Below, in pieces: positions 1-15,494 of a stretch of 15,494 nucleotides of DNA (within the stretch, counting starts at the first letter, position 1; the number at the start of each line of letters is the position of its first letter). The DNA is from a virus. Taxonomy: Duplodnaviria > Heunggongvirae > Uroviricota > Caudoviricetes. Location of the stretch: IMG/VR virus record IMGVR_UViG_2568526635_000004, positions 1-15,494 of that record; one strand, written 5' to 3'. The position numbers were made by a program, and so were the translations under genes. The notes under the pieces were generated by a model that worked only from the letters and a program-made list of their open reading frames with translations, made no database searches and was not told where the DNA came from.

Positions 1-12
1 AAGAATTGAAAA

Positions 13-364: not shown

Positions 365-517
365 TGCGGGTTATGCGGGTTAGCGGGTTATCTTCGCGTG
401 CTAAGTATTTTTTATTCTTTAATATCAATGCCTTAAAAAATAGCGTGTTTAAATATTATCCAAATCGTAACCCGCAAGTCATTCAAAATAACCCGCAAAC
501 ACCCCCCAAATAACCCG
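365..517. repeat. Iteron cluster: 3 tandem forward GCGGGTTA(T) copies (365-372, 374-381, 382-389), an AT-rich spacer, then 3 inverted copies TAACCCGC (467-474, 488-495, 510-517) at ~21-bp spacing; second origin-like or crr-like site
   Basis: Exact 8-mer matches counted directly; the same motif forms the array at 8647-8769 next to the replication gene; a degenerate copy GCGGGTGTA lies at 259-267. Confidence 0.6.
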
Positions 518-763
518 CAAACGCATCAGGAAAGTGGGTCCAGTGATGCCACCGAACGGCTGAATCGGGTAACGTTCTGTTGCCTGGTTGTTGTTTGCGG
601 GTCAGCAATACTGACGCGCAAAGTTAGTTGTATGTGGCTGTGCGTCCACCAGCTACGCCGGAATGGGGTATTCCGTTTCAACGGAACCGGTATGACGAAC
701 ATGATCGCACCTTCTCCCGAAAACGGTGCGACCTCCATAGAGGAAATGCCTATTCAGATCCCC

Positions 764-1118
764 GGTGATTTTCACCATTCAGAATCTGGAGGGTGAGTTT
801 TCCAGTTTTCCCCAATGGGGGATTCTGGAACAATCAACGGGTTAGCGATTAAGCTGGCGAGTAATTAAACTGCGAAAATTTCGTAGTTTGTGACTATCTG
901 AAAGATAGTCGGTTGTTCCGGCCTCAGCCGTTGGCTGTTCCCGAAAATATCAGTCAGTTACGTTAACCGCTGATTTCTGCCTTTGGTGTGAATACCGTCA
1001 CTTTAACCTACGGTAATCGTTCTGCCTCGGTGCGCGTCTCTTCCGTGGTCATTTCGACCATGCACCACACGAAAAGGTGGAGTGTTTATCACCTCCCCTT
1101 CGTGGTGATTTCCACCAT
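764..1118. repeat. Three copies of a 15-bp dyad motif GGT(G/C)ATTT(T/C)(C/G)ACCAT at 764-778, 1047-1061 and 1104-1118; putative protein-binding or hairpin-forming sites
   Basis: Each copy is an inverted repeat (GGTGA/TCACC or GGTCA..GACC); the second and third copies differ by compensatory changes that preserve the dyad; the surrounding ~30 bp is also similar between copies two and three. Confidence 0.5.
810..845. repeat. 36-bp direct repeat, copy 1 (CCCCAATGGGGGATTCTGGAACAATCAACGGGTTAG), contains CCCC-AAT-GGGG hairpin
   Basis: Matches 1218-1253 with 2 mismatches; a second shared segment (TTCCCGAAAATATCA..AGTTAC at ~936-960 versus ~1286-1310) follows each copy. Confidence 0.55.
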
Positions 1119-1217
1119 GCAGCCATCACACCGCCACGCAAAAGGGATTTACCACTACCAGCTATATCCCTCAAATCCACCAATGGTGGAAAAGCCCACA
1201 GCAGGCCGCCCAGCCTC

Positions 1218-1253
1218 CCCCAATGGGGGATTGTGGAAGAATCAACGGGTTAG
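1218..1253. repeat. 36-bp direct repeat, copy 2 (CCCCAATGGGGGATTGTGGAAGAATCAACGGGTTAG)
   Basis: See copy 1 at 810-845. Confidence 0.55.
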
Positions 1254-1303
1254 GCTGGTTTCCCCGATGTTCGCCGCTGGCGAATTTCGAAAATATCAAC
1301 CAG

Positions 1304-1597
1304 TTACCGCCGCAACCGCTCCGGCTTCTTCCACTGGTAAGTCTTTTTCTCGCTCTCCCGGTACATCTGCACGCGGCGACGGTAGGCCAGCAACTCGAGA
1401 ACTCTGGTACGTATATCGCGCATATCCACGCCGCTAAGCTCGATACCGTCACGGCGCATCACCTCAGCCACCACACGCGCGTAATTTTCGGCTATCACGC
1501 TGTCCGGCTGCGTGACCTCCTGTTTGCCTGCTGCCTGGCTGATTCCGGTAACGCGGCGGATTATTTTTAGTAGTTCGGTTTCGCTCATTCTCGTCAT
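1304..1597 (-). CDS. Hypothetical small protein (97 aa) translationally coupled to the end of the large terminase gene
   Basis: ATG at 1597 overlaps the terL stop (ATGA overlap, 1594-1597); alternative ATG at 1588 with GGGG ~10 nt upstream; no recognisable motif; basic C-terminus. Confidence 0.55.
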   Translation of the reverse strand: MTRMSETELLKIIRRVTGISQAAGKQEVTQPDSVIAENYARVVAEVMRRDGIELSGVDMRDIRTRVLELLAYRRRVQMYRESEKKTYQWKKPERLRR

Positions 1598-3255
1598 ACC
1601 CCATCAAACGCCGCAAGCCGCTCTTTGTGGCTGTCGCTCATATCGAATGCAAAATCCTCGTGCTCTGCCTGGAATGTGCCAAACGCCATCAGCGCCGCAA
1701 CGCTCGGGTCTATCTTGTTGGATGATTTTTTCTTGTTCGGCTTGATATTGGCGTTTGCGTCACTCTGCATCACAACATTACTCATTGACCAGGCCAGCAC
1801 CGGATCACCACGATGCACAATCACCTTCCGGTTAACAAAAACTTCGAACGATTTCGCCGCCGGACTGAAACGAAGGTATGTTTGCGGGAACGGCTCCACC
1901 TCAAATCCTGCCCCCTGTAGCTGCGTCCTCAGGTGCGTGGCGTTCCATGTATCGAAGCCCACCAGCCTGATATTGAAATTCTCTGCATCCGCCATGATGT
2001 CATCACGGATACGGTCATAATCAATGCAGTCACCCGGTGTTGTGCGTATCCAGCCCGCCTTTACCCACTGGCGATAGATGGCGCGGTTTTTATTGGCGGG
2101 GTTCTGTAGCTGAAATTCCGGCAGATAGTGACGGGAAACCAGCATAATCTTTTTACCGACCGGAAAGGCATAGCACACGCTGGAAATATCGCTGGTTGAT
2201 GATAAGTCCAGCCCCGCGTAGCACTCCTGCCCGTATAAATCCGCCTCCGCGAACGTTCCGGCGCACTCCGCCCATGCACCGTTACCCATCCACGGCGTAG
2301 CCCCCTGACACCAGATATTGAATCGCTTGGTGAGCATTTCCACCCACTGCGACGGAATACCCCGCGCTTTCTGGATGGTTGAGGCCAGTTTTTCACGATC
2401 GACGGAAACATCGATATTGGGATTCGCCTTTATCCACATCGCCGGATCGTCAACCTCGCTTTCATCATCCAGCTCGTAAATCAGCACGAACATGGATTCG
2501 TTCACCTCTTCACCATCCAGTATCTGGCAGCAATAGTCGTAGTGTTGTTTACAGGCTGAAACAACGTTGCTCCCCGATGTGGTGATGGCAAATAATAATC
2601 CCTCCGGACGCGCCCCCATTCCCAGTTCAAGCGCGGAATAAACCCCGTTGTCAGGGTGCAGGTGATATTCATCCACAATGGCAAGACTCGGGTTTGTACC
2701 TTCAATGGTTGCCGCTTTTGCTGCCAGTGGCTTTAACAGGCTGTTGGTTTTCGGGTGTATCACCTTGTGTGCCTGAATATTTACCCGTTTTCGTAACGGT
2801 CGGGATAAAAGGCACATCTGACGCGCATCATCAAACACGATCCGCGCCTGATCACGACTCACGGCGGCGGTGTAAATATCCTGCTGCCCGTTTTCCATAA
2901 CCAGAAACCAGTTAGCCAGGATAGCAGCGACCGTGGATTTGGCATTTTTTCGCGGTACTTCAATGAATGCGCTGGTGTATTTGCGCCGTCCGGTGGCCTT
3001 AACCTTAAAGCCCAGGATGCACGCAAAGGCGAACTGCTGCCACGGCTCCAGCTCAATGGGGCTACCGCGCATTGCGCCTTTTACGTGCGGGCACACCCTG
3101 GAAAAGGCAATAAACCGCTCCACGACCTCCGGATCGAACGTGTAAAGGGGGTTTTCAAGGTCAGAAAAATACCGTTTAACGGCCTGTTTCAGTCGTTTAC
3201 AGGCCGTAATTTTGCCGTTTTTTACGCCTTCTGCGTACTCATGCCAGGCGGTCAA
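1594..3255 (-). CDS. terL: Phage terminase large subunit (ATPase plus nuclease)
   Basis: 553-aa ORF with Walker A-like segment (PRKNAKST) and overall terminase-like layout; TTG start at 3255 preceded by strong AGGAAGAGGA Shine-Dalgarno; overlaps terS end. Confidence 0.93.
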   Translation of the reverse strand: MTAWHEYAEGVKNGKITACKRLKQAVKRYFSDLENPLYTFDPEVVERFIAFSRVCPHVKGAMRGSPIELEPWQQFAFACILGFKVKATGRRKYTSAFIEVPRKNAKSTVAAILANWFLVMENGQQDIYTAAVSRDQARIVFDDARQMCLLSRPLRKRVNIQAHKVIHPKTNSLLKPLAAKAATIEGTNPSLAIVDEYHLHPDNGVYSALELGMGARPEGLLFAITTSGSNVVSACKQHYDYCCQILDGEEVNESMFVLIYELDDESEVDDPAMWIKANPNIDVSVDREKLASTIQKARGIPSQWVEMLTKRFNIWCQGATPWMGNGAWAECAGTFAEADLYGQECYAGLDLSSTSDISSVCYAFPVGKKIMLVSRHYLPEFQLQNPANKNRAIYRQWVKAGWIRTTPGDCIDYDRIRDDIMADAENFNIRLVGFDTWNATHLRTQLQGAGFEVEPFPQTYLRFSPAAKSFEVFVNRKVIVHRGDPVLAWSMSNVVMQSDANANIKPNKKKSSNKIDPSVAALMAFGTFQAEHEDFAFDMSDSHKERLAAFDGV

Positions 3256-3595
3256 GCTCGTCCTCTTCCTCTGTTTCAGGTGGATTTCTGCGGCGGCTTA
3301 CCGGGTCAAAACCCAGCAAAGAAGCCATTTTGATCATTATTCTTTCTGCGTCAGCCTTTGCGCTCAGGGCGGGGTTTCTGCTCTCGCTGCCCTGACTGTT
3401 AACAATGCTGAACCCGCGCGTGGCAAGGTCTTCGACGGCTTTGCGGTATATGGAGTAGTTAACGCAATACAGCTCCAGATTGCTCCAGTCGGCGGGGGTA
3501 AGGTCTTCCCGTCCGGAAAGCTGGCGCGATTTTTCCTTCCACTGCCTGACCGCGATTTCATCCAGGTAAGCGGGGGCTTTTGGTGGTCTTGCCAT
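3239..3595 (-). CDS. terS: Phage terminase small subunit, P27-family-like
   Basis: N-terminus MARPPKAPAYLDE typical of P27-family small terminases; an in-frame ATG at 3736 with better Shine-Dalgarno would add 47 aa, so the true start is uncertain. Confidence 0.78.
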   Translation of the reverse strand: MARPPKAPAYLDEIAVRQWKEKSRQLSGREDLTPADWSNLELYCVNYSIYRKAVEDLATRGFSIVNSQGSESRNPALSAKADAERIMIKMASLLGFDPVSRRRNPPETEEEDELDRLA

Positions 3596-3883
3596 GTTCT
3601 TTTTTCGCCCAATTATTTTCAAAAAAATTCCCGTGCACAAAAATTTGAGGGGGCGGTCGGTGTCCGGCAGGGACGGTTTCGTCCTGAAAACCACCCCCAC
3701 CCCCTCTGACGGCCTCACCAGCGATTGCGAAAACATTCCATGACCTCGCGGTCACGGTCGGTTAATCGCTTCGCTGTGGTGCGTTTTGTGCGCCCTGTCC
3801 TGTTGGCTTTGTGCTCTGTCTCCTGTGTCTTCCATGTGTCACGCTGCCTTATCAGTCCACGTATCAGCCTGGTTTGCTCCTGT

Positions 3884-4324
3884 TCAGTCATCATCGCCAT
3901 ACATCCAGTCGTTACGGTGTGCCGCCCGTTCTTCCTGCTCGCGATACATGCCCGCTTTACGGTTTGCTTTCGTGGCTGGATCTTCCCGTGTCGTCTTACG
4001 GTTGTGGCACGTCTGGCACAATGCCTGGTGATTCCACTCAGGCCAGAAGAGAACATCACCGCCGCCATTGATGGGAATGATGTGATCCACCACAAGAGCT
4101 GGCGTATAAATCCCCTTAGCCAGACAACGCACGCATAACGGGTTTTTGCTCAGGTACAGGGCGCGGTATTTGTCCCACTGTCGGGAATACCCGCGCGCGC
4201 GGCGGTGTCCCCGTCTGGCATCCTCTGCACGCCATGCAGCCCGCCTGTGCTCTTCACACTTGCCGGACTTCACGCGCTTATTACAGCCAGGCTCAGTGCA
4301 TCGCCTTAATGGTTGCCACGGCAT
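3884..4324 (-). CDS. HNH endonuclease (phage packaging-associated)
   Basis: Cys-rich zinc-finger-like N-terminus (CTEPGCNKRVKSGKC), VVDHIIP and NHQALCQTCHNRKT motifs; ATGA overlap with the upstream connector gene. Confidence 0.9.
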   Translation of the reverse strand: MPWQPLRRCTEPGCNKRVKSGKCEEHRRAAWRAEDARRGHRRARGYSRQWDKYRALYLSKNPLCVRCLAKGIYTPALVVDHIIPINGGGDVLFWPEWNHQALCQTCHNRKTTREDPATKANRKAGMYREQEERAAHRNDWMYGDDD

Positions 4325-4626
4325 CAGTACACCCCTACGTCACGATAAACTGACCAGAGCGCAGAAATAGCCATAGGCAGTTCCGAGTGCTCCACTGGTG
4401 AAACCGCTTCCCGGTTCTCGTACAGGAAAGCGATGTACATCAGGCAACCAACACGCATTGCCGGGGTAAATTCCAGCCCGTCTTCAAAACGTTTCCCGAT
4501 ATGCTTCTGGCAGGCTTCCAGCGCCGCATCGGTATACATTTTCAGAAGTTCGCCTTCACCGGATAAATCATCATCAAGTCGAAGATGTGCCCTGACTTCA
4601 TCAGGTGTAATTCTGGCTTCACTCAT
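4324..4626 (-). CDS. gp6-like head-tail connector / adaptor protein
   Basis: Start MSEARITPDEVRAHLRLDDD resembles gp6-like head-tail connector proteins; ATG at 4626 has AGGGAG Shine-Dalgarno; the six-frame ORF extends to 4713 but that part overlaps the portal gene. Confidence 0.78.
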   Translation of the reverse strand: MSEARITPDEVRAHLRLDDDLSGEGELLKMYTDAALEACQKHIGKRFEDGLEFTPAMRVGCLMYIAFLYENREAVSPVEHSELPMAISALWSVYRDVGVY

Positions 4627-5833
4627 CTTTTCTCCCTTTAATTTCCACAGTCTGTTTCCATGCCTGGCTGAACTCATCACCACCTTCACGCGGCGGCATA
4701 CCCTCACGCTCACGGGCTTCGTTCGGATTCATGATCCCGTTCTTAATCCCTTTCTCATACGTGGCATAACGTTCGGTGGGTGTGGCGCGTAATAAATCGG
4801 CTGAATCAAACTCAACCAGATAACGGGTACCAGGTACGGGAGAAGCCACCAGCAAAGCGGCCTTGATTTGCTGTTCGAAGTTCGCCAGCCACGGGCGCAT
4901 TGTCATGGTCAGAAACGCGCGGCTTGCCTCGCTGAAATTGCTGTAGGTGCTGTTGCTGTATTCCTGCAGAAAAATCGGCGACACGTTGAACATCCTGGCG
5001 ATGTCTTCAATGGAGAAGCGACGGGAGGCCAGCCATTCCGCATCCTGGTTACTCATTCCCAGTTGCTTGTAATCCATGCCCCCTTCAAGGATTGGCGTTT
5101 TTCCGGCATTTTTCGCCCCCTTGTAGCGTTCCAGGGCGTCTAATGCCTGTTTACCTTTCACACCGTCCAGCCATTCGCCTGACGTGATAATCCCTGCCGC
5201 CATCATGCCATCTTTCATAATGCTGGCTCCGTGACGCTGTTGAGCAAGGCCAAGCCCCAGCGCCTCACGGCAAATCGTGACGGGGGAACGCCCCAGAAAG
5301 CCATCATCCGAGGCATAGCGGAGATGCAGAACTTCTTCCTGTAAATACGTGCGCACCGTTCCTGTACAGGGTTCGGTGATGGTATAGCGGTATTTGTGTG
5401 CGCCTGTGCGTTCCGGTACAACACACCCCGGCGCATAAGGATGAAGTGATTTTGGCTGCCCGTCCTGCCCCCACTCAATAACCGCATAGGCGTTACCGTT
5501 CAGCAGGCAGTGACGCATCATTGTGCGTTTAAACTGGTAAGGTGTCTGGCACGAATTAGGCTGCTCATTCAGCAGAATATCTACCGGGTGACTGTCCAGC
5601 CATTCCCGCGCCTCCCTGCCCTTGTCATTACGTACCAGATACAGATAACACGGCATCGTGGCCACCGCCTCAGCGATGACAGAAACCGCATTCATCACTG
5701 CAGGCAATGATTCAGCCGTCCCGGCAGAAACATATTCTCCGGATCCGGTATTCGGTACGCCGGACAGCGCCAGAAAATCATCAATGGACAGGTTACGCTG
5801 CTCGCTTTTTTTACGACTAAAAGGCCACCACAT
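4619..5833 (-). CDS. Phage portal protein, HK97 family
   Basis: ~400-aa ORF with portal-like sequence between protease and connector genes; ATG at 5833 with GGGG Shine-Dalgarno chosen over the upstream TTG at 5923, which would overlap the protease gene by ~90 bp. Confidence 0.88.
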   Translation of the reverse strand: MWWPFSRKKSEQRNLSIDDFLALSGVPNTGSGEYVSAGTAESLPAVMNAVSVIAEAVATMPCYLYLVRNDKGREAREWLDSHPVDILLNEQPNSCQTPYQFKRTMMRHCLLNGNAYAVIEWGQDGQPKSLHPYAPGCVVPERTGAHKYRYTITEPCTGTVRTYLQEEVLHLRYASDDGFLGRSPVTICREALGLGLAQQRHGASIMKDGMMAAGIITSGEWLDGVKGKQALDALERYKGAKNAGKTPILEGGMDYKQLGMSNQDAEWLASRRFSIEDIARMFNVSPIFLQEYSNSTYSNFSEASRAFLTMTMRPWLANFEQQIKAALLVASPVPGTRYLVEFDSADLLRATPTERYATYEKGIKNGIMNPNEAREREGMPPREGGDEFSQAWKQTVEIKGRKDE

Positions 5834-5834
5834 A

Positions 5835-6395
5835 TCACAACCCCGCCAGCTCAGACCAGCGATGACGATTATTTCCTGTCGGACGTAATTCAGGGTGCTG
5901 TGCAAACAACGAACGGTGGGCAATCTCCACGCCAGATTCTGGATAAGCAGGCATCGACGTTATTGTGATTTCACGGAGTTCAGCGGCGGTTACGGTACGC
6001 AGATACGGTTTTTGCGCGATACTCCACTCCTCGCATAATGCGCGAAAACCAAAGCTCATTCCTGTAATGTCGCCACGCTCCACCAGCGTAAGCACATCTT
6101 TTCCAAGCTGGGTATCCGGCGGTGTCAGTTCAAAACGTAACCCGGTGTTATCCTCAGTCAGTACCAGAGTGCCGGATTTGGTGCGCCCCAGCAGTTGGGT
6201 ATAGTCATGCTCATACAGGCAGCGCACATCATTACCCGTCGCCAGATAGTCAGCAAAAGCCCCCGGCGTGAACTGTTCGCGGAATTCGTCCCAGATAATT
6301 TCTGAAAGGCTGTTCCAGCGAACGGCATACCCCACCAGCTTTTTATTGCTGGCGGTCAGTTCAGATGTGCGGATTTCAAAATCGGTATTTTTCAT
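5835..6395 (-). CDS. HK97-family prohead (head maturation) protease
   Basis: 186-aa ORF with typical prohead protease segments (GYAVRWN, HDYTQLLGRT); GGAG Shine-Dalgarno 9 nt upstream of the ATG. Confidence 0.9.
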   Translation of the reverse strand: MKNTDFEIRTSELTASNKKLVGYAVRWNSLSEIIWDEFREQFTPGAFADYLATGNDVRCLYEHDYTQLLGRTKSGTLVLTEDNTGLRFELTPPDTQLGKDVLTLVERGDITGMSFGFRALCEEWSIAQKPYLRTVTAAELREITITSMPAYPESGVEIAHRSLFAQHPELRPTGNNRHRWSELAGL

Positions 6396-6411
6396 CGGTA
6401 TACTCCATAAA

Positions 6412-6438
6412 GCTGAAAAAGGAGGCCGAAGCCTCCTC
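6412..6438 (-). terminator. Rho-independent terminator or attenuator between major capsid and protease genes
   Basis: On the minus strand: AGGAGGC-UUCG-GCCUCCU (7-bp GC-rich stem, UUCG tetraloop) followed by a U-tract; sits 12 nt after the capsid stop codon. Confidence 0.65.
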
Positions 6439-6449
6439 CTTACTCATGA

Positions 6450-7619
6450 CTAGCCAGCTTTCATTTCCAGAATTTTGATGGCGTTTGAATCCACCACACC
6501 ACCGCCCAGATATTTATCCGTGTGGACCTTGTAGAATCCGGGTTCAGTAATGTTGTCCGGTCGGGTGCGAATCCCTGTTACATGATCAACGATGAAATAA
6601 CCACGACTGAAATCGCCAACCGCTAGCGGTGCTTTTCCTGCGCCGATGTCCGGCATGGACTCCAGGCAGTAAACAGGACGACCAAGCAACATATCCGGCG
6701 CACCTTCTTTAAGGCTGTCGCGCCAGATATAATCGCCGTTCTCATTTTTCAGCTTCTGTAGTGTCCCTGCCGTGCCCGAGTTCATCACCCAGACGGCATT
6801 TTTGCGGTATTTCGCTTTCAGCTTGTAGAGAATGTCGATCAGTTCGTCCGCTGTAATGGCGGTTCCACTTGCCGCTACCATTTTTTCAATGGTGCCAAAA
6901 GCGCGGGTTTTGTCACTGGTCGCCGCACGGGTGTAAGCCATGAAGCCTTTCGGCTTGCCGTTACCGTCGCCATTAACAAAATCATCCTCTTCGGTGCTGA
7001 CGAACGTGTCGGCAATTTCGGAGGATAACCAGCCCAGAATATCCACCTCTGAAAAATCCAGGATTTCCTGCGTGGTTTTCGGGTAGGCGTAGATCGGATT
7101 CAGCTTGATGGTTACGCGTTCAATTTTCGGGGTGTTGGTTTCACTGCGTGCGCTGCCTTCTGTGCCTCGTCCTACAGTTGCGCCGCCAGTGGAAACCAGT
7201 TTCTGAAACTCATTTGATTTTGCGGTCTTCACGGTCGCGATCACGCGCATAACACTGTCATCCTGTAGCTGGCGCATGACTTCGCGATCGAGCTCAGGAA
7301 TTACGGTATATCCGCCATCCCTGCCGCTGTCAGTGCTGGTGGACAGTGATCGCACATCTCCGGTTACGATGTAGTTACGCAATTCATCAGATGATAATTT
7401 CTGGATGCCCGTTCCTGGCTTGCTGCGTTCTTCATCAGCCACAGACTCGAGGCGGGAAATTTCTGTGTCGAGAGAATCGGCTTTTGCACGCAGTTCATCA
7501 AACTGTTTGCCCTCGTCATCGTTCAGGCTGCGGTTTTCACTGTCGGCTTTTTCCAGCAGGGATCGCATCTGGTTTTTCAGGGCGGTTTTTTGCTGGCGGA
7601 GTTCGATTAATTTCTTCAT
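6450..7619 (-). CDS. HK97-fold major capsid protein with N-terminal coiled-coil scaffold (delta-like) domain
   Basis: 389-aa ORF; charged coiled-coil-like N-terminal ~100 aa followed by MCP-like body and a C-terminus typical of HK97 capsid proteins. Confidence 0.92.
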   Translation of the reverse strand: MKKLIELRQQKTALKNQMRSLLEKADSENRSLNDDEGKQFDELRAKADSLDTEISRLESVADEERSKPGTGIQKLSSDELRNYIVTGDVRSLSTSTDSGRDGGYTVIPELDREVMRQLQDDSVMRVIATVKTAKSNEFQKLVSTGGATVGRGTEGSARSETNTPKIERVTIKLNPIYAYPKTTQEILDFSEVDILGWLSSEIADTFVSTEEDDFVNGDGNGKPKGFMAYTRAATSDKTRAFGTIEKMVAASGTAITADELIDILYKLKAKYRKNAVWVMNSGTAGTLQKLKNENGDYIWRDSLKEGAPDMLLGRPVYCLESMPDIGAGKAPLAVGDFSRGYFIVDHVTGIRTRPDNITEPGFYKVHTDKYLGGGVVDSNAIKILEMKAG

Positions 7620-7689
7620 GAAGGTTTTCTCGTATTGGTTAAGATTCAGGACGTGAAACCAACACGGAGGGAGCGCCGCCCGACACTCT

Positions 7690-7839
7690 CGGCATCTCGC
7701 AGATCAACCCGGCATCGCGCAGGGGGTCAGGCGGCATTGTGGCGGCTCACGTCTGAGTGCCACACGCCAACATATACATAAAAATCAGTATGTAAACATC
7801 AGCCAGAATCACCGAACAATCTGGAACAACCGCGAACAA
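7690..7839. promoter_or_regulatory. Regulatory region upstream of the head operon: direct repeat CGGCATC(T/G)CGCAG x2 (7690-7702, 7710-7722), dyad TGTGGC-N15-GCCACA (7738-7764) and three GAACAA motifs at exact 10-bp phasing (7814, 7824, 7834)
   Basis: Repeats read directly from the sequence; the region lies between the upstream operon terminator and the capsid start codon. Confidence 0.45.
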
Positions 7840-7856
7840 ATAATTTACAAAACCTG

Positions 7857-7884
7857 AAAAAAAGACCCGGGGTAAATCCGGGCC
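7857..7884 (-). terminator. Rho-independent terminator ending the replication/early operon
   Basis: On the minus strand: 7-bp stem GGCCCGG/CCGGGUC with a 7-nt loop followed by 7 U residues; 10 nt downstream of the 82-aa ORF stop. Confidence 0.75.
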
Positions 7885-7893
7885 TTTATCGCT

Positions 7894-8142
7894 TTACTGT
7901 TTCACGGGATCGCGCATTCTGCGCCTTATTTTCCACAAATATTCGATCATCGCTTCCACCTGCTCACGGTTGGTTGCGAAAATTTCCCCGGTCAGTGAGC
8001 TGCGCAGAAAATCATGATGATCCACAACAAATAACGCATCGGAAGAAAGCAGACGGCGATATTTTTTTGCTGTCGTGGTTTCCAGATCATCAATACCATG
8101 AAACTTTTTATGTTGCTGAACTTCTTCAAATGTCACTGGCAT
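7894..8142 (-). CDS. Hypothetical small protein (82 aa), basic C-terminus
   Basis: ATG at 8142 with AGGGGGA Shine-Dalgarno; followed by a strong terminator; no recognisable motif. Confidence 0.6.
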   Translation of the reverse strand: MPVTFEEVQQHKKFHGIDDLETTTAKKYRRLLSSDALFVVDHHDFLRSSLTGEIFATNREQVEAMIEYLWKIRRRMRDPVKQ

Positions 8143-8159
8143 GTATCCCCCTGTTATCG

Positions 8160-8582
8160 CTAAAAGGGTATGTTATCCCCGTATGGATCATCATTCCCCG
8201 CCTGTTGCTTAGCCCTATTTAGAGCGTCAGTAGCCTGGCCCTGCTGGCCTTTTTTGCCACCAGGTCGCGCCGTTCTGGCACTGATTACGCTGTCTGCGAT
8301 AACCTGCCAGCCCTGCCGCGTTTCCCCGTTCTGGCCTGTCCACTGGCTTACCTGCATGTTACCCGCCACGCTCACCAGCTCGCCTTTGTGGTGTTTTGCC
8401 AGTGCGTCGGCCTGTCTGCCAAACGCCAGAACGGATAACCACATCGTCGCCTGTCCGTCATCTGCCTGATTGCACGGCAGGGGGACAGCCATGCTTGCCA
8501 TAGCCATTTGTGTGCCCTTGCTGGTGGTCTTTAACTGCGGGTCAGCCACCAGCCGCCCGTAAGCTGCTATCTGTGCTGTCAT
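8160..8582 (-). CDS. ssb: Single-stranded DNA-binding protein-like (SSB-like) with acidic C-terminal tail
   Basis: 140-aa ORF with OB-fold-like layout, Gly/Gln-rich linker and a C-terminal DDPYGDNIPF resembling the canonical SSB DDDIPF tail; GGAGAA Shine-Dalgarno. Confidence 0.7.
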   Translation of the reverse strand: MTAQIAAYGRLVADPQLKTTSKGTQMAMASMAVPLPCNQADDGQATMWLSVLAFGRQADALAKHHKGELVSVAGNMQVSQWTGQNGETRQGWQVIADSVISARTARPGGKKGQQGQATDALNRAKQQAGNDDPYGDNIPF

Positions 8583-8646
8583 GCTGTCTGTTCTCCGGTT
8601 TTAACGTTGATAGTTACGCTTGTTTACACCCTTACGGTGAAATTCT

Positions 8647-8769
8647 GCGGGTTATAATCGCACTTTTGCGGGTTATAACTGCCGTTTTGCGGGTTACGTG
8701 CGGGTTATTGATTTCCTTTTTATTCATACAGTTAATGCACTTACACACAGGATAACCCGCATAACCCGC
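8647..8769. repeat. Origin-like iteron array: 4 forward GCGGGTTA copies (8647, 8668, 8689, 8700; 21/21/11-bp spacing), AT-rich spacer, 2 tandem inverted copies (8753-8760, 8762-8769)
   Basis: Exact repeats counted in the sequence; located immediately downstream of the primase/helicase gene, with the AT-rich segment 8709-8750 between the arms. Confidence 0.7.
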
Positions 8770-8793
8770 AACTTTTCACCTCACACAGGGGAG

Positions 8794-10917
8794 TTAATCT
8801 TCTGCCTCAGGCTGGAACATCATCACGTAAAAAACATGCTGCTTACCCCCAATTTTGCCGAGCGCCTTTTTCTTGTAACGGCGATCGTTACCCGCTTCCA
8901 GCATTCCGGCAGCACTCAACGCGCGGGCAAAGTGGGATGGGTTAAATCCCTGTGCGATCTCCCCCTCAAACACATGAGGAAACGTGTAAAAACGGAACTC
9001 ATCATCTTCATTTCTGATACTCCCCTTTCTGTATCCGGCAAGGTCTTTAATCGGTAAATCACGCTCGTCGGTGTTGGGCCACGGAAGGTATCTGCTGAAT
9101 CCGAACGACGCTAAAAAAGCCTCTGCCTGTTCAACCATCTGTTTAAACTCCCTGTTACCCGTGCCGAACTCCTTCACCCAGGCATTAAAATTATGCTGAA
9201 TGGCATCGCGGCATTCCTGCTCATTCCAGCCAGTAACATGACCGGAAAGCACAAGCGCGGCCTCCAGTATGGCGAAACGCTCACCCACGCGGTGGACCTG
9301 CTCGCCGTAGCTCTCCGGTATCAGGTTGCGCCACCGTTCACGGCATGCCCTTACCATGTCCTTTGCCTCCTGCTGGTGGTCTGCCAGCCATTTAACCCAC
9401 TCACGCCCCGCCGCCCCGTGATTTTCTGTCCAGGCATCTTTTAACGCGTCTGCGTGCGCCTTTCCGGTGCTGTATTCGTGAAATTGTGTGGCTTTTTCCA
9501 TCGGCACGTTAAGCAGGCGGACAAGCTGCCCCGCCTTGACTTTTATCCCCTCCGTTTTGAGGAATGTTTCAACGTCCATTTCTCCGGTACTGATTGCCAC
9601 CGTTCGCCAGTGTTTTATCTCCCTGTTGCCGCCGTCCTTCGCCCCCTGTAATTTCCCGGAACCGTTAAACAGCGTATAAGCAGACGTTGACACCTCCCGC
9701 GCGTTTCCGGCCTGGCCTATTTCATCCAGGGGTAACAGCCCGTCGTTGTGTGCCTCTGCCTCGTTGGCGATACCTAACGCTGTGCCGTACCAGGTCAGCC
9801 GCTGCGCGTCCGGCTCTCCCCATAAACTTGATGCGATGTTCTGCGTTGTGGTCTTACCTGCCGATGACTGTTCGAAAAGATGTACCCCGAAGCCGTCAGC
9901 ACCCACCAGCCCGATTAATGGTGCGGATAGCGATACCGCCACACCCAGCATCATGGACGGATTACCACCAGCCAGTCGCGCCACACTGTCGCGCCAGCCC
10001 TCCGCCGTTCCTGCCACGGAATAACCATTAACGGCAGCCGTTTTTCCGGTAAACAGGACTGGCTTTTCGCAATCACCAATGACCGAACCGTCCGGCATGA
10101 TGTACGCGCCAAAATGCCAGCCCGTTGTTGTGCTTAACTGCCATTCCTCATGGTTTCCGCTTAACTGCATCCAGTCAGCCAGGATAGCCCTGTATTTACC
10201 GTTGGTTGTCACGTTCAGTCCGTGGTCTTTCAGCAGCCGCCAGCCGTCACGGTCGCCAATGCCACCGCACGGAACCGCCATCGTGATGACTTCATGGTTT
10301 GCTGGCTTTTTCCAGCGCATCACGCGGTAATGCTCTTTGCCGATTGTCCCCGTTCCCAGTAGCTCAAGCGGGGAGCATAACCACGTTTCAGGCCGGATAA
10401 TTTCGCCTGACTGCTTATCCACTTTTGGCGTTACCCAGAAAACACCATCGGCGCGGCTTTCAACGCGGGGCTTTAATTCATCATCACCCGGGCTTTCTGT
10501 GATTTTTTTCTTTAAGGGCAACACCAGACTTTCCCCGCGCTCGTATTCGTCTTTGAGGCGAGGCAACTGGTCGGATAAATCCGCCGGGCTGGTGTCAGTT
10601 ATCCCCGCGTATTCGTATACGGTCTTCACGCCAGCCACAGCCAGCAACGTGACGATCTGTGTGAGGCTACGTTCAGTGATGTGCCCTGCGCGGTAAATAC
10701 GCACACACTGACGGCTATCATCAATAATTTGATAACCGGTAATATCTTTCAGGTGTTCATCTGACAGAACGACAGGCGGCACATTGTCGGCGGCAATATG
10801 CTTACCTGCCCATTCCTGCCACTCTTTCGCATGGCTCCACGCATCACTACCCGCAAAGATGATAACCTCCGTCATTTTGTCGGCTGGCTGGTGCTTTAAG
10901 TTTGGTGCGCGCTTCAT
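8794..10917 (-). CDS. Replication initiation protein, primase/helicase type (P4 alpha-like, Walker A GKT)
   Basis: 707-aa ORF with a central P-loop (FEQSSAGKTTT) and large flanking domains; ATG at 10917 with GGGGAAAGG Shine-Dalgarno, ATGA overlap with the upstream ORF; the exact family was not verified. Confidence 0.8.
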   Translation of the reverse strand: MKRAPNLKHQPADKMTEVIIFAGSDAWSHAKEWQEWAGKHIAADNVPPVVLSDEHLKDITGYQIIDDSRQCVRIYRAGHITERSLTQIVTLLAVAGVKTVYEYAGITDTSPADLSDQLPRLKDEYERGESLVLPLKKKITESPGDDELKPRVESRADGVFWVTPKVDKQSGEIIRPETWLCSPLELLGTGTIGKEHYRVMRWKKPANHEVITMAVPCGGIGDRDGWRLLKDHGLNVTTNGKYRAILADWMQLSGNHEEWQLSTTTGWHFGAYIMPDGSVIGDCEKPVLFTGKTAAVNGYSVAGTAEGWRDSVARLAGGNPSMMLGVAVSLSAPLIGLVGADGFGVHLFEQSSAGKTTTQNIASSLWGEPDAQRLTWYGTALGIANEAEAHNDGLLPLDEIGQAGNAREVSTSAYTLFNGSGKLQGAKDGGNREIKHWRTVAISTGEMDVETFLKTEGIKVKAGQLVRLLNVPMEKATQFHEYSTGKAHADALKDAWTENHGAAGREWVKWLADHQQEAKDMVRACRERWRNLIPESYGEQVHRVGERFAILEAALVLSGHVTGWNEQECRDAIQHNFNAWVKEFGTGNREFKQMVEQAEAFLASFGFSRYLPWPNTDERDLPIKDLAGYRKGSIRNEDDEFRFYTFPHVFEGEIAQGFNPSHFARALSAAGMLEAGNDRRYKKKALGKIGGKQHVFYVMMFQPEAED

Positions 10918-11228
10918 TTTGCCTTTCCCCGTTCACGAATAATTTCACGTACTGCCTTAATGCGTTCCATTCCTGTAACGCGCATGATTCTGTCGATGTC
11001 GCTTAATTCTGCTGGTGGTGCTTTGCTTACCAGGGTGAACTCCCTGTCAAAGCGCATATGTGACGACACGCAGGGATGCGCATAACCTTCGCGGATATAG
11101 GTCACACGAAAATCATCGACGGTTTTAATCGTTATCGTGCTGCCGTATTTATCCCGGAAAATATCACCGGGGCGGATTTCAGGCCGAGCGTGACCGCTGG
11201 CAGTAAAGCCAGAATTTTTCTTTTTCAT
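10914..11228 (-). CDS. Hypothetical protein (104 aa) coupled to the primase gene
   Basis: ORF with ATG start; its stop overlaps the primase start codon; no recognisable motif. Confidence 0.6.
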   Translation of the reverse strand: MKKKNSGFTASGHARPEIRPGDIFRDKYGSTITIKTVDDFRVTYIREGYAHPCVSSHMRFDREFTLVSKAPPAELSDIDRIMRVTGMERIKAVREIIRERGKAK

Positions 11229-11234
11229 GTTTTT

Positions 11235-11453
11235 TTACTCCAGAGGCAGCTTTTTAGCGGCGAGCTCAATATCAGATGTCAGAGAAACCTGTGTATTTGC
11301 CAGGTCTAACAACAAAGAAATAAGAATTTCTTCTCTGCTATCGGATTTATCGGTGCTAAGGCTGTTCATCCACATATTGACGACTTCCCTGATTTTTTTC
11401 GCAGAGTGCAGGGCTTCAAATGCCAGGTCTTCAATATCATGTTTATTTCGCAT
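11235..11453 (-). CDS. Hypothetical small protein (~72 aa), relatively AT-rich
   Basis: ATG at 11453 preceded by a GGGGG Shine-Dalgarno; the ORF track offers a longer version to 11483; overlaps the stop of the upstream small ORF. Confidence 0.5.
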   Translation of the reverse strand: MRNKHDIEDLAFEALHSAKKIREVVNMWMNSLSTDKSDSREEILISLLLDLANTQVSLTSDIELAAKKLPLE

Positions 11454-11688
11454 AATCGCCCCCGCCATTTTCACAATCAGCAATCAGGATGGCTTTAGCC
11501 TCATTCAGCGCCATATCAGCGGTAAGCTGTGCGTAAGCCAGCGAATGCGGGATTATCGCCCCTGTATATTCCGTCTCTCTGGTAATGTGTTTTTCTGCGG
11601 TTGCTACCGTGCATGAAATATCAATCAGCGCGTGCATCAGCGTTTTGATGGCTTCGGCGGCTGCGTCCGGACGGGTGTTATTGCACAT
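11443..11688 (-). CDS. Hypothetical small protein (~81 aa)
   Basis: ATG at 11688 with GGGGG Shine-Dalgarno, overlapping the stop of the Ash/Icd-like ORF; the six-frame ORF extends further upstream but that part overlaps the neighbouring gene. Confidence 0.5.
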   Translation of the reverse strand: MCNNTRPDAAAEAIKTLMHALIDISCTVATAEKHITRETEYTGAIIPHSLAYAQLTADMALNEAKAILIADCENGGGDYAK

Positions 11689-12217
11689 GGCGCACCCCCT
11701 GACGAATACGGGCGGCGAATACAGCGACACAACCTGACGGGCAATGGTTACGCGCTTCGCGTTCCGTCCAGGCGGTGACGTGGATGATTTGGGACTCTGA
11801 CGCGCCAAAGATGATAAAGCGCCAGATAAAGGCAGTTTGGGAATGTACAAGGGTAGGGATAGTAGCCATGTTGGCAGCCTCTTCGTTAGGTTTAATAAAC
11901 CCACCGCAGGAAACGCCAATTTCGCTGGCGGTGGACTGTACAGGGTTGGCGTAACCGGTTAACGAAGAACCCGGCGCGGATTGCTCCGCCCCCATACAGC
12001 CCACCATTGATAAGGTGTGACTATCCGGCACAAAAAAACACGCAGGGCGCGTGTTGTGCGCTTCGTTAAATACCAGGACGCCAATCCCGGCACCAGATTT
12101 TGCTGGTGCGGGTAAATCATAGCCCTGGCTGGCAGTGGCGATCAACAGGTTTTTTACATCGGGTTTATTCAGGTTGTGCGAGTCCCGCCCTTGCGGGTGT
12201 GTGGTATGATTTAGCAT
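11678..12217 (-). CDS. Ash-family-like protein with C-terminal Icd-like (cell-division-inhibitor-like) segment
   Basis: Segments AKSGAGIGV, FFVPDSH, SMVGCMGAEQ, ANPVQSTASEIGVSCGG recall Ash-family proteins of P4-like elements; the C-terminal FIWRF...TEREAR...FAARI recalls Icd-like peptides (an internal ATG at MATIPTL could yield a ~62-aa product); start at 12217 has a GAGGT Shine-Dalgarno. Assignment is from memory of these families, not from a search. Confidence 0.5.
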   Translation of the reverse strand: MLNHTTHPQGRDSHNLNKPDVKNLLIATASQGYDLPAPAKSGAGIGVLVFNEAHNTRPACFFVPDSHTLSMVGCMGAEQSAPGSSLTGYANPVQSTASEIGVSCGGFIKPNEEAANMATIPTLVHSQTAFIWRFIIFGASESQIIHVTAWTEREARNHCPSGCVAVFAARIRQGVRHVQ

Positions 12218-12314
12218 AGCTACCTCGATACGCTTTCTATCGTTGGTGGTTAGAAGCCCTGCGAGTGGTAACGACACTTGCGGGGCTTTGCATTTATGCA
12301 CCTTGATAACCTCA

Positions 12315-12350
12315 AGGTGTGGCCCACTATATGCTTTAGGTGTGGTCCAC
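12315..12350. promoter_or_regulatory. Two operator-like 13-bp direct repeats AGGTGTGG(C/T)CCAC, each containing the dyad GTGG-N-CCAC, in the divergent control region
   Basis: Repeats at 12315-12327 and 12337-12350; immediately upstream of a TATACT -10-like hexamer (12381-12386) and the plus-strand small gene. Confidence 0.5.
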
Positions 12351-12416
12351 GTCAAGGGTTTTATTTGTGCTTTTTCTGTGTATACTGTCCCCCACCAATC
12401 CAACAGAGGAATAGAA

Positions 12417-12596
12417 ATGGCAACGGGTACAACAAACGCAAAATCACAAGCTCTAAAGGCTCGTGTACCACACGAAATAGTAAACGCCATGGAATCAGTG
12501 AAAGAATCAGGCGAAAGCACATCACAATTCATCATTGCGTCAATGCAAGGCGAGATCAAACGCCGCCAGCGCAGGAAGGCCAAAGAGCAGGAATAG
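12417..12596 (+). CDS. Small ribbon-helix-helix-like (Arc/MetJ-type) DNA-binding protein, candidate repressor
   Basis: 59-aa ORF (MATGTTNAKSQALKARVPHEIVNAMESV...) with GAGGAA Shine-Dalgarno 7 nt upstream; N-terminal basic beta-strand-like segment followed by helices; the only plus-strand gene, divergent from the replication operon. Confidence 0.6.
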   Translation: MATGTTNAKSQALKARVPHEIVNAMESVKESGESTSQFIIASMQGEIKRRQRRKAKEQE

Positions 12597-12729
12597 CCCA
12601 CCAGCAAGCCAGCACATTCACCATAATGACCCTCGGTTAAACCTAGAGTCATTGGTGCAAACCTGACAGATTGCCCACCAGCCAGCAAATCGCTATGATG
12701 TTCGGGCTTATGTTTAGTGTTTTCCCATT

Positions 12730-12758
12730 GGCGACCGCCCCCGGTCGCCTTTGTTTTA
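12730..12758 (+). terminator. Rho-independent terminator on the plus strand
   Basis: Perfect 8-bp stem GGCGACCG/CGGTCGCC with CCCC loop followed by TTTGTTTTA; ~135 nt downstream of the plus-strand small gene. Confidence 0.7.
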
Positions 12759-12776
12759 TGTGCCATATACTCCCCT

Positions 12777-13001
12777 TTACGCTGCCTTGCCTGAATTAAT
12801 GCGATCCCGGCTTTTAACCCATTCCATAACCTCGGACAGCAGCCAACCTACAGAACGACCGCCCAGATTAAGACGTGACGGAAAGCATCCTTTTTTCTCC
12901 AGTTCGTAGCGTGTAGTGCGGCACACTCCTGTTAACTTACGGCATTCATCCTCACGGATTACGCGATCTGATAGTGATTGCGATTGTTTGAGTTGGTTCA
13001 T
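12777..13001 (-). CDS. alpA: AlpA-family transcriptional regulator (excisionase-like helix-turn-helix)
   Basis: SDRVIREDECRKLTGVCRTTRYELEKKGCFPSRLNLGGRSVGWLLSEVMEWV matches the AlpA/phage regulatory protein pattern; ATG at 13001 has a GAGGG Shine-Dalgarno (the ORF track extends to 13037). Confidence 0.85.
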   Translation of the reverse strand: MNQLKQSQSLSDRVIREDECRKLTGVCRTTRYELEKKGCFPSRLNLGGRSVGWLLSEVMEWVKSRDRINSGKAA

Positions 13002-13079
13002 ATAAAAACGCCCTCGTTCGTTATCGTTCGAGAGCATTTTTTATGAGAGAAAATAGGTAAGCAATAAACAAAAAAATAA

Positions 13080-14075
13080 TTATTTTTCTTTATTTATTTT
13101 GTATTCGCTAAGTAATTTATAAATTTTAGGTCTAATTTTTTCTAAAAATGGTATAACTGTTTGTTCAAGCCCGAAACCATCACGCTCACCATTGGGATAA
13201 ATCATGGATGCAAGAACACGCTTTGGGACTCTTCTTTTTGTTCCAAATGTATAAAACTTAGCCAACATCAATAAATCCATAAGCGGTATAATTTTATATT
13301 TTATTATTCTCTCTCTCAAATATCCCCATGCCCGTTTGGGTTCAGGCTCTTCTAAATTGAGTTCTTTTCTCCATATCGGTAATAATTTTTTTAAATCAGA
13401 TAATATCTCATCATCTGTTTTTGTAATATCAAGTGACAAGTGCATTGCATAAGAAAAGCCTTCACTATTAGACTTCATCAATTCAGGCGCAACTGCACTT
13501 AAACTCTCATTTGCCAAAGTAAATAGAAGTTCATCATCATACTCAGATAAATAATCGACATCTTCAGAGCTCAACAATAATGTGCGCTCAGTTCCTGCAC
13601 CCGATGATGGTTTTTTCCAAACATAATTTTCAAGCATTATTCTTCGCAAAGGGACTACGGTTCGAGTTGATGATAACATATGAGGAAAAAAACCTTTATA
13701 CAGTTCTTTTCTTATGTTTTTTTCATAAAACGAATAGTCCGCACCAATATCATCGCCAATAACTGAAGATGCAAATATCTTTCTAAACCGACCAGAAACA
13801 AAAGCAATCTCAGTTTCTATTGATGGAATTTTTGAATTAATAATATCTTTTGTCTCATTCTCATCTTCTGGCAAACTCCTTACATCGATAAAATTCTCAT
13901 ACAAATAAGCCATAAAGTGTTCTTCATCTTCTACAACAAACCCCTTTATAAATCTGTTGTAATCCTCTCTACGCATTAACTGAGTAATCAATTCAAAATC
14001 ACTCATATCGGTAAAAACTTCATACTTCCCCAAATTAAAGCCCAATGCTTCTGCAAAATTTTTAAAAGAAATCAT
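13080..14075 (-). CDS. Hypothetical 331-aa cargo protein, strongly AT-rich, unknown function
   Basis: Uninterrupted ORF whose ATG overlaps the integrase stop (ATGA at 14072-14075); nucleotide composition visibly far more AT-rich than the rest of the element; no recognisable catalytic motif by eye. Confidence 0.8.
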   Translation of the reverse strand: MISFKNFAEALGFNLGKYEVFTDMSDFELITQLMRREDYNRFIKGFVVEDEEHFMAYLYENFIDVRSLPEDENETKDIINSKIPSIETEIAFVSGRFRKIFASSVIGDDIGADYSFYEKNIRKELYKGFFPHMLSSTRTVVPLRRIMLENYVWKKPSSGAGTERTLLLSSEDVDYLSEYDDELLFTLANESLSAVAPELMKSNSEGFSYAMHLSLDITKTDDEILSDLKKLLPIWRKELNLEEPEPKRAWGYLRERIIKYKIIPLMDLLMLAKFYTFGTKRRVPKRVLASMIYPNGERDGFGLEQTVIPFLEKIRPKIYKLLSEYKINKEK

Positions 14076-15292
14076 TTGCTAACCTTCAAAATAACAACAT
14101 TTTCATTATTACCAACTAACACATCGAGACGTTCAACCCATAGATTCAGAGCGTCCCGCTTCGCCTGTAAATAGCGTGAATGGTTATAGGTTTTTTGCTG
14201 ACCAGGCATCTGATGCGCTGTGATGTGCTCCACGATATGCGGATCGACACCTAAATCGTTCAGCATCGTTGTAAACGTGTGGCGAAAGTCATGCAGCGTC
14301 CAGTGTTCCTGGTTAAGCCGCTTATGCGCATTTCGCCCATATTGCGCTACCGTGGTATCTTTTTTCAGTTCTCCGAGTAACAACCCTGTATGCCGGTTCT
14401 GCTCCACCAGCTTCTGAATGAACGGCAAAATGCCATCGGGTATTGGCCTGAATATCGTTACCTTCGTTTTGCTGTGCTCTTTTGGCACTGTCCACAACAT
14501 TTCTTTCAGATCCCATTCTTTGATCTCTGAAAGTCTGACCTCTGCCGTTCTGCACCCGAACACAATCAGCAAGCGCATTAACGCGCTGTAGTAAGGCGCG
14601 AACACATCACCATCAATAGCGCGTAAAATTTCCTTTAATTCGCTGTTGCTGTGCACCCTCTCGCGAATTTCTGCTCTCTTACCCACATCGCTGACGATCA
14701 AATCGTCCAGGGCATTACTGAACGCGTAGCGCCTCCTGCGGCAGAACTTTAGCGCCTGTTTGCAGGTTTGCATGACGTGCCCTGCTGCTACTGGTGCTTT
14801 TTTTCGTACACGGTCAAAACATGCGATCCACTGCCTTGTATCGCATTTATCAAGAGGAATTGCCCCTATATGGCAAATGATGTGCTTATCCATACGTTGC
14901 ACCAGCTTTATGTAGTCTTTGCGGTTATCCTTCGCGTATTCCTCCAGCCAGTAGTTAATCGCCTCCTTTACCGTAACGGGTTTTAGTGATTCCTGTACTG
15001 TGGCGCACAACTCATAACGGGGGTTTTTACCCTCAGCCAGCCATGCCCGGCACTGTGTGCGTTTTTCCCTTGCGGCTTTCAGCGACAATTCCGGATAAGC
15101 CCCCAACTTTAGCCGCTCAGCGGCAACCTCACGGCCTCCCGTTCGATACCGGAAATACCAGGTTAATTTGCCGCCCTTTGAGTGTTTAATCTCCAGCCCG
15201 CCCCCGTCGGAGTAAAAACGCTCTTTTTCTGCCTGGACAGCCGCTAATTTTTTTAACGTCGAATCGCTCAGTTTGTTTAGTGCTTTTCCCAC
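14072..15292 (-). CDS. int: Tyrosine recombinase / integrase, P4 type (N-terminal arm-binding domain plus catalytic domain)
   Basis: 406-aa ORF; N-terminus LSDSTLKKL...GGLEIKHSKGGKLTWYFRYR typical of P4-like integrase arm-binding domains; catalytic HDFRHTF and C-terminal Tyr region; GTG start at 15292 with AAGAGGA Shine-Dalgarno; adjacent to the right direct repeat. Confidence 0.93.
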   Translation of the reverse strand: MGKALNKLSDSTLKKLAAVQAEKERFYSDGGGLEIKHSKGGKLTWYFRYRTGGREVAAERLKLGAYPELSLKAAREKRTQCRAWLAEGKNPRYELCATVQESLKPVTVKEAINYWLEEYAKDNRKDYIKLVQRMDKHIICHIGAIPLDKCDTRQWIACFDRVRKKAPVAAGHVMQTCKQALKFCRRRRYAFSNALDDLIVSDVGKRAEIRERVHSNSELKEILRAIDGDVFAPYYSALMRLLIVFGCRTAEVRLSEIKEWDLKEMLWTVPKEHSKTKVTIFRPIPDGILPFIQKLVEQNRHTGLLLGELKKDTTVAQYGRNAHKRLNQEHWTLHDFRHTFTTMLNDLGVDPHIVEHITAHQMPGQQKTYNHSRYLQAKRDALNLWVERLDVLVGNNENVVILKVSK

Positions 15293-15319
15293 TATCAGAT
15301 CCTCTTTTCAGTCCTCCAG

Positions 15320-15397
15320 CCTCAAAAAACTGACCACACAACTGACCACACATTTTGTTGAAGCTCTACGAACAACGACGAACAACAACAAACAAGA
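15320..15397. repeat. Right copy of the ~76-bp imperfect direct repeat (putative attR), immediately upstream of int
   Basis: See left copy at 13-88. Confidence 0.7.
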
Positions 15398-15494
15398 AAA
15401 CACAATAATACAATATATATCAAATACATACACAAACAACCACGAACAAACCCGAACTGCAAAAAACACTAAATGAGAAAATACGGGTATTTCT

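Follow-up and report, generated by a model that had tools for sequence, protein, structure and literature searches.

A probable antisense-RNA immunity switch at the head of the replication operon of an Escherichia coli capsid-forming satellite

What is encoded by the run of small, closely packed genes that precedes the primase in IMG/VR virus record IMGVR_UViG_2568526635_000004, and does the first of them, in which Ash-like and Icd-like segments share a single frame, specify a fusion protein, an internal-start product or something else? We analysed positions 1 to 15,494 of this record (hereafter the window, meaning this whole stretch of 15,494 nucleotides (nt)), which is, by its gene content, an Escherichia coli capsid-forming phage-inducible chromosomal island (cf-PICI) satellite and not the P4-like element that the original prediction, made from the sequence alone, had taken it to be. 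That prediction described four small open reading frames (ORFs) followed by the primase, and all of them lie on the minus strand where it had placed them (Table 1). The observation is real and is largely accounted for by known biology: we consider it likely that 10914-12217 is the 5' end of a cf-PICI replication operon under an antisense-RNA immunity switch of the P1/P4 type.

The resemblance of the 179-amino-acid (aa) ORF to both Ash and Icd is genuine, as profile searches matched the two families within the single frame: Pfam Phage_ASH (PF10554) at aa 36-126, with 58.3 bits against a gathering threshold of 26, and NCBIfam phage_ICD_like at aa 130-173, with 57 bits. The Phage_ASH match corresponds to nucleotides 12112-11840, and this span is that of an isrK/seqA-like RNA, a C4/CI-like antisense immunity RNA and the icd leader. 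P4 CI itself, scored with the same C4 model, reaches 74.9 bits, close to the score in the window. We compared the window with related E. coli and Shigella sequences and, because these are related, counts over loci given here are not counts of independent events. In an alignment of 33 distinct loci, variable columns in three Ash segments are spread evenly over the codon positions (25/24/25, 14/15/13 and 15/14/16), and selection is therefore not acting on the amino acids of the Ash part. Its conservation tracks the RNA helices, and Phage_ASH does not behave here as a protein family whose residues are selected. The "Ash" half is two regulatory RNAs, with no protein domain under amino-acid selection, and the suggested Ash/Icd fusion falls with it: the half in question is coextensive with isrK and C4, covaries as RNA and has no codon-position bias.

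This reading bears on how such regions are annotated. In near-identical loci (L001 and L002) the RNA region carries the label "ash family protein" from the NCBI pipeline PGAP, which flags it as incomplete or a pseudogene, and a 2026 survey presents ash in PICIs as a helper-prophage derepressor gene (PMC13612085). Both the label and the interpretation appear to be annotation transferred onto an RNA locus. The C4 and isrK models are known to detect P4 CI and seqA relatives and to match Gram-negative PICIs (PMC10111431), and IsrK has been described as a structural homologue of P4 seqA (PMC4825925).

The C4 RNA folds into an outer stem and two hairpins, and 13 of its 25 base pairs show compensatory changes (RNAalifold, 14 sequences). 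It also exposes two hypervariable boxes, b' in the loop of hairpin 2 and a' in a single-stranded stretch, which are complementary to target boxes a1 and b1 in isrK and a2 and b2 in the icd leader. Across 12 haplotypes, 98.3% of cells are paired between a'/b' and a1/b1 and 100% between a'/b' and a2/b2, and 11 of the 15 pairs show double changes in both sets; slid controls gave only 21-52%. Among close relatives, at least five a-types combine variously with at least six b-types. The mean energy of cognate duplexes, -32/-28 kcal, compares with -20 for non-cognate ones, which are about 10 kcal/mol weaker. In the whole window the b box is found only at b1, at b2 and, as its complement, at b'. The 250-nt leader has a folding z score of -4.1. 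Box b2 (11888-11881) overlaps the icd Shine-Dalgarno (SD) sequence GAAGAGG (11884-11878), which lies 8 nt 5' of the ATG at 11869, and both the SD and the ATG are invariant despite the variation in b2.

The internal-start product anticipated by the original prediction has fared better than the fusion. The 63-aa Icd-like ORF, with its invariant SD and ATG, is annotated alone by PGAP in near-identical loci, including one that is 99% identical, and P4 Kil matches the same NCBIfam model (NF033153) at 76.1 bits. Variable columns in icd, counted over the same 33 loci, are distributed 10/9/26 over the three codon positions, and from the contrast with the flat Ash part we conclude that amino-acid selection acts on this ORF. 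Judged by these sequence features, the 63-aa Icd/Kil-like ORF is the real first gene, the first to be translated 3' of the leader promoter. A tblastn search of phage genomes with Icd returned a single match.

The putative leader promoter is a sigma-70-like site whose predicted start, at about 12109, is the first base of the isrK match, and both of its hexamers are kept in all 33 aligned loci. By position it is the analogue of P4 PLE and of P1 P1c4/P2c4. At its 3' end isrK carries a predicted intrinsic terminator, with a hairpin at 12055-12037 and a U run to about 12030 (terminator scan). A second promoter-like site, TTGACG-18 nt-TATAGT at 12326-12355 on the minus strand, lies between ylcI and isrK; it matches the consensus at 10 of 12 positions, scores better than the first and is kept in a subset of loci only. 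It could drive the 179-aa frame from the ATG at 12217, which is preceded by its own GAGG SD.

From these features and the precedents of P1 and P4 we infer how the locus would work in the uninduced state. A constitutive promoter at 12145-12116 would start transcription at about 12109, and most transcripts would end at the isrK/seqA-like terminator, with read-through giving, upon processing, the C4/CI-like RNA. Boxes b' and a' of this RNA would then pair with a2/b2, and by covering the icd SD at b2 would leave icd untranslated. The same boxes, as a1/b1, are carried by isrK and would pair with C4 in cis in the full-length leader. As orf81, orf72, the DUF4222 gene and the primase would depend on translational coupling, and the untranslated leader would be prone to termination, the whole operon would stay off, making the primase the gene finally controlled by the upstream RNA switch.

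Substitutions in the three small ORFs are enriched at codon position 3 (64/75/106, 123/99/155 and 118/118/176), and orf81, orf72 and the DUF4222 gene behave as coding sequence. The earlier description of them as coupled throughout by overlapping codons holds for icd/orf81 and orf81/orf72 (11 nt each) and for the ATGA shared by DUF4222 and the primase, and breaks down between orf72 and DUF4222, which are separated by a 6-nt gap. Its remark that the 72-aa ORF is AT-rich was correct (41.6% GC against 50% for the window). That none of the three has a recognisable function still applies to orf81 and orf72, whereas the 104-aa ORF belongs to DUF4222, a family that includes RgdR.

Homologues of orf81 form more than 175 clusters, all named hypothetical, and the cassette is present in about half of the related loci. 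AlphaFold2 predicts a two-helix hairpin (pLDDT 83), for which a Foldseek search of viral structures gave nothing below E = 0.4. A member of the orf72 family stands directly upstream of DUF4222 in 54 loci (jackhmmer, local ORFs), and orf72 is 34% identical to ECs1580, which occupies the same position in Sakai. An apparent confinement of orf72 to three loci, seen with plain tblastn, was overturned by this iterative profile search; tblastn of orf72 against phage genomes gave no match. The DUF4222 protein is 51% identical to RgdR (ECs1581) over 71 aa (E 2e-23) and is predicted to form an SH3/Tudor/KOW-like barrel followed by C-terminal helices. DUF4222 genes almost always stand directly before the primase and are joined to it, almost invariably, by a stop/start overlap. 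Sequence searches of the PDB with all three proteins returned nothing meaningful.

Between icd and DUF4222, relatives carry a variable array whose one to four small ORFs occur in 32 architectures. In 58 related loci the junctions between small ORFs fall into a few types: neighbours overlap by 8 nt at 59 junctions and by 11 nt at 35, and 38 junctions have a gap of 5-6 nt; at each 8- or 11-nt overlap, an SD precedes the ATG by 6 nt. The 11-nt junction is near-constant, AGGAGGTGCGCC-ATG-TGCAATAA (11443-11453 and 11678-11688 in the window), and this sequence recurs at cassette borders in BLAST matches. Such homologous junctions may provide a route for cassette shuffling, and the pattern suggests that orf81 and orf72 are members of a variable, translationally coupled cassette array.

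Could these genes be helper-manipulation or host-takeover effectors, as the original prediction proposed, and not parts of a replication module? We think this rather unlikely. An array with so many architectures does fit accessory or arms-race genes, and the P4 helper derepressor epsilon lies at the equivalent position, but searches against Pfam, NCBIfam, PHROG and PADLOC related none of the small ORFs to epsilon or to a defence or anti-defence family. Also in favour of the proposal, RgdR alters host expression of the enterocyte effacement locus and its type III secretion system, as well as motility, and its activation of that secretion system requires an RGD tripeptide (R20) (PMC10877973, review). 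The corresponding residues in the window protein read R19-P20-G21-D22, and nearly every DUF4222 protein has P20. The overlap of DUF4222 with the primase, moreover, fits a replication-linked role at least equally well.

What lies upstream of icd raises a further question. The icd frame is open not merely to the ATG at 12217 but to an ATG at 12766, only 10 nt past the stop of alpA, where the junction reads TAA-AGGGGAG-TAT-ATG. The resulting 362-codon frame, which we call Eta-like, spans the antisense gene ylcI, the promoter, isrK and C4, with icd nested at its 3' end, and its domain order, Phage_ASH then ICD-like, is that of P4 Eta. No domain match was found in this frame upstream of the Ash part, where the first 218 aa are rich in Cys, Ser and Arg and run antisense to ylcI; as in P4 eta/kil, substitutions in the frame have no codon-position bias.

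Its openness is nonetheless conserved. At least 345 nt are open upstream of the icd ATG in 32 of the 33 aligned loci, and the leaders of the 12 haplotypes have stops in the other two frames (56 and 13) and none in that of icd. When we considered 53 distinct loci, the icd frame was open for 650-2271 nt, to 90 nt or less from the alpA stop, in 23, and the other frames in none; median open lengths were 885 nt in the icd frame and 22 and 89 nt in the others. Four unrelated classes of alpA junction have an ATG 10-57 nt past the stop, and there both ATG and SD are conserved.

The antisense gene tells a similar story. The Eta-like frame and ylcI share third codon positions, and in this wobble-sharing frame no antisense stop occurs in any of the 36 distinct ylcI alleles (32-100% identical), whereas the other two frames contain 101 and 125. 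When the same YlcI proteins are recoded synonymously, 20.8 +/- 3.9 antisense stops are expected, and the lowest of 500 trials gave 11, where none is observed; 26 of the 36 alleles are in frame with icd. On the plus strand at 12730-12749, 3' of ylcI and immediately before the alpA stop, lies a strong hairpin with a T run that resembles a terminator; given this placement, transcription of ylcI converges on the proposed long leftward transcript, to whose 5' part it is fully complementary. By eye, YlcI resembles a ribbon-helix-helix protein; we found no functional literature on it.

We tentatively suggest that the 362-codon frame is a "translated track", a sequence selected to be free of stops but not for its peptide, whose only role would be to carry ribosomes from alpA through ylcI, the terminator and the immunity region. 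In the immunity switch that we consider likely, and by analogy with P4 eta, helper infection would bring in transcription from upstream by way of alpA, and ribosomes starting at the ATG at 12766 would translate the frame through antisense ylcI, isrK and C4 into icd. The translated transcript would be insensitive to C4 and to termination, allowing the cassette genes and the primase to be expressed.

A simpler account would make the open frame a compositional by-product of GC-rich structured RNA and the amino-acid make-up of YlcI, leaving the RNAs and the 63-aa Icd as all that matters. We regard this as improbable. The recoding result, with some 20 antisense stops expected and none seen, speaks directly against it, as does the prevalence of the one ylcI frame relation that joins icd. 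So does P1, which has C4 and icd and yet keeps only 33 nt open upstream of icd, against 897 nt in the window. The open stretch also crosses intergenic DNA, and in each of four unrelated junction classes its end lies close to the stop of alpA and has an ATG. What this account explains well is that the frame is not continuous to alpA in 30 of the 53 loci, that ylcI is almost devoid of Tyr and that every ylcI allele is antisense stop-free, including the 10 out of frame with icd, which points to a property of ylcI itself.

Least probable of all is that the 179-aa or 362-aa ORF is a genuine two-domain "Bro network" regulatory protein to which the RNA matches are secondary: matches to Phage_ASH and to several PHROG "transcriptional regulator" families, the open frame, SD-like sequences before the ATGs at 12217 and 12766 and the reported translation of P4 Eta (PMC10111431) would suit such a protein, but the Ash part varies evenly over codon positions where icd does not, its changes compensate helices and intermolecular boxes while radically altering the peptide, the Cys/Ser/Arg-rich upstream part antisense to ylcI matches no domain and, in near-identical loci, PGAP regards its "ash family protein" as a pseudogene and incomplete.

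Several observations weigh against the immunity switch and translated track that we favour. The minimum-energy fold of the full leader pairs a1/b1 with C4 in cis, an arrangement that resembles "structure A" of a Salmonella locus (PMC4825925). The promoter and terminator are pattern matches, and the promoter scan returned three sites where 3.8 were expected. Because BLASTP aligned the window Icd with neither P4 Kil nor Sakai ECs1579, the shared NCBIfam hidden Markov model is the sole link between Icd and Kil. The loci with interrupted frames and the convergence of ylcI transcription with the proposed long transcript, both described above, count here as well. Finally, no C4 or isrK match was found upstream of the equivalent genes in related loci, including the cf-PICI prototype region Sakai Sp7, and the RNA switch is therefore optional for this type of element.

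The arrangement of immunity modules varies among relatives. Loci without an Rfam C4 or isrK match upstream of the gene at the icd position comprise many of the group L039-L082 and Sakai Sp7 (L084, 19711-24000); in L039, L042, L063, L075 and L077 a long open frame nevertheless runs from the alpA stop to icd. Some related satellites have tandem immunity modules, or a C4 downstream of the first icd-like gene: modules lie at 2743-2830 and 3220-3308 in L033 and downstream of icd in L070, L071 and L072, and the order in L016, L025 and L010 is icd followed by icd. In L011, the c4-a1b1 match is located after icd.

The locus can be compared with several known systems. The immI region of P1 has the same order of a1, b1, c4, a2, b2 and icd, with a boxes of 7 nt and b boxes of 8 nt in both; b2 ends about 10 nt 5' of the icd ATG in each, the C4 RNAs belong to RF01695 and the Icd proteins to NF033153. 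In P1, icd is followed by the antirepressor gene ant, whereas in the window it is followed by the small-ORF array and then the primase, and, unlike in P1, the a1/b1 region of the window scores as isrK with its own terminator.

The P4 immunity region is ordered PLL, vis (orf88), eta/kil (with seqA, CI RNA and seqC), epsilon, orf151, orf106 and the alpha primase. Its Rfam matches, C4 at 8507-8420 and isrK at 8692-8615, lie inside the historic "cI gene product"/eta ORF, and Phage_ASH spans both. P4 eta, which is reported to be translated, opens where the alpA homologue ends and covers seqA and CI, with kil nested 3'; translation of eta or kil prevents immunity-specific termination (PMC10111431). 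P4 and the window thus share C4-type and isrK-type RNAs within a long ORF that begins at the end of an alpA/vis homologue and ends in an Icd-like Kil, and in both the operon ends in a primase. They differ in the length of that ORF (214 codons in P4 against 362, with the convergent ylcI, in the window) and in the spacing of isrK and C4 (about 107 nt against 21 nt). In addition, homologues of epsilon, orf151 and DUF5375 were not found in the window in the comparison with P4, and the window, unlike P4, has a DUF927-type primase and its own capsid and terminase genes.

Two further loci are instructive. Salmonella Gifsy-1 isrK-orf45-anrP shares the isrK RNA and terminator, cis pairing with the downstream region, a nucleotide-conserved but peptide-variable downstream ORF over a C4-like RNA and translational coupling to the next gene; it differs in that its IsrK, within a full prophage, activates an antiterminator-regulator cascade in trans, without Icd or a primase operon (PMC4825925). 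In Sakai Sp7, RgdR occupies the same place before the primase, with an ATGA overlap and an orf72-family gene 5' of it; this locus differs in having no C4 or isrK match and a 63-aa ORF that does not align with Icd.

Table 1. Positions of the RNAs, genes, frames and signals discussed, in window coordinates
Feature	Position	Strand	Evidence and remarks
DUF927 primase/helicase	8794-10917	-	Pfam DUF927, 158 bits; PHROG 1139 DNA primase
DUF4222 protein, 104 aa	10914-11228	-	Pfam PF13973, 67.2 bits; stop overlaps primase ATG (ATGA)
orf72, 72 aa	11235-11453	-	ATG overlaps orf81 stop by 11 nt; divergent family
orf81, 81 aa	11443-11688	-	ATG overlaps icd stop by 11 nt
Icd/Kil-like ORF, 63 aa	11678-11869	-	NCBIfam NF033153, 59.7 bits against cutoff of 25
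"Ash/Icd" ORF, 179 aa	11678-12217	-	ATG at 12217; 3' half of 362-codon frame
Eta-like open frame, 362 codons	11678-12766	-	ATG at 12766, SD AGGGGAG; in frame with icd
icd leader	11878-11919	-	target boxes a2 11919-11913 and b2 11888-11881
C4/CI-like antisense immunity RNA	11924-12011	-	Rfam RF01695, 75.3 bits against gathering threshold of 45; full-length match 1-87
C4 boxes	b' 11967-11960; a' 11952-11946	-	hypervariable; b' in hairpin-2 loop, a' single-stranded
isrK/seqA-like RNA	12033-12109	-	Rfam RF01394, 80 bits against gathering threshold of 50
Target boxes in isrK	a1 12084-12078; b1 12068-12061	-	complementary to C4 boxes
Predicted sigma-70-like promoter	12116-12145	-	TTGATC-18 nt-TATGAT; consensus scan; predicted start about 12109
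ylcI/ynfO-family gene	12417-12596	+	NCBIfam NF041551, 67 bits; wholly within Eta-like frame
alpA, AlpA-family gene	12777-13037	-	Pfam Phage_AlpA, 57 bits

The wider context supports the assignment to the cf-PICIs. By Pfam, the window encodes an integrase, DUF6387, AlpA, the primase, a single-stranded-DNA-binding protein, an HK97-type capsid protein, a prohead protease, a portal protein, a connector, an HNH protein and the small and large terminase subunits; integrase, alpA, primase and a set of its own capsid and packaging genes are thus present, without tail genes. This layout is that of Sakai Sp7 (OI-51, EcCIEDL933 type) and agrees with the published one (cf-PICI preprint), and chromosomal loci near-identical to the window bear the same annotation. 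Induction of cf-PICIs needs alpA (cf-PICI preprint), and alpA is the probable entry point of helper-activated transcription running into the Eta-like frame. Between the integrase and alpA lies a 331-aa DUF6387 ORF (13080-14075, minus strand) with 32% GC against the window mean of 50%, which looks like acquired cargo; PADLOC assigned neither it nor any of the small proteins to a defence family.

These findings have several consequences. In PICIs and P4-like elements, "ash family protein" is a frequent call, often marked as a pseudogene, that overlies C4/CI and isrK/seqA and is better read as an RNA immunity locus. The a and b boxes form a combinatorial specificity set, which predicts hetero-immunity groups among co-resident satellites. 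The small ORFs add little to this picture, except that an RgdR-family member links satellite carriage to host virulence regulation. The feature that most deserves experiment is the conserved open frame, together with the absence of stops that it entails on the antisense strand of ylcI. It offers a testable case of an ORF kept for the act of translation and not for its product, and one that also constrains an antisense gene. If the translated-track reading is true, ylcI would be constrained to stay stop-free on its opposite strand, and the principle known from P4 eta would extend to a general design rule for the regulatory regions of enterobacterial PICIs.

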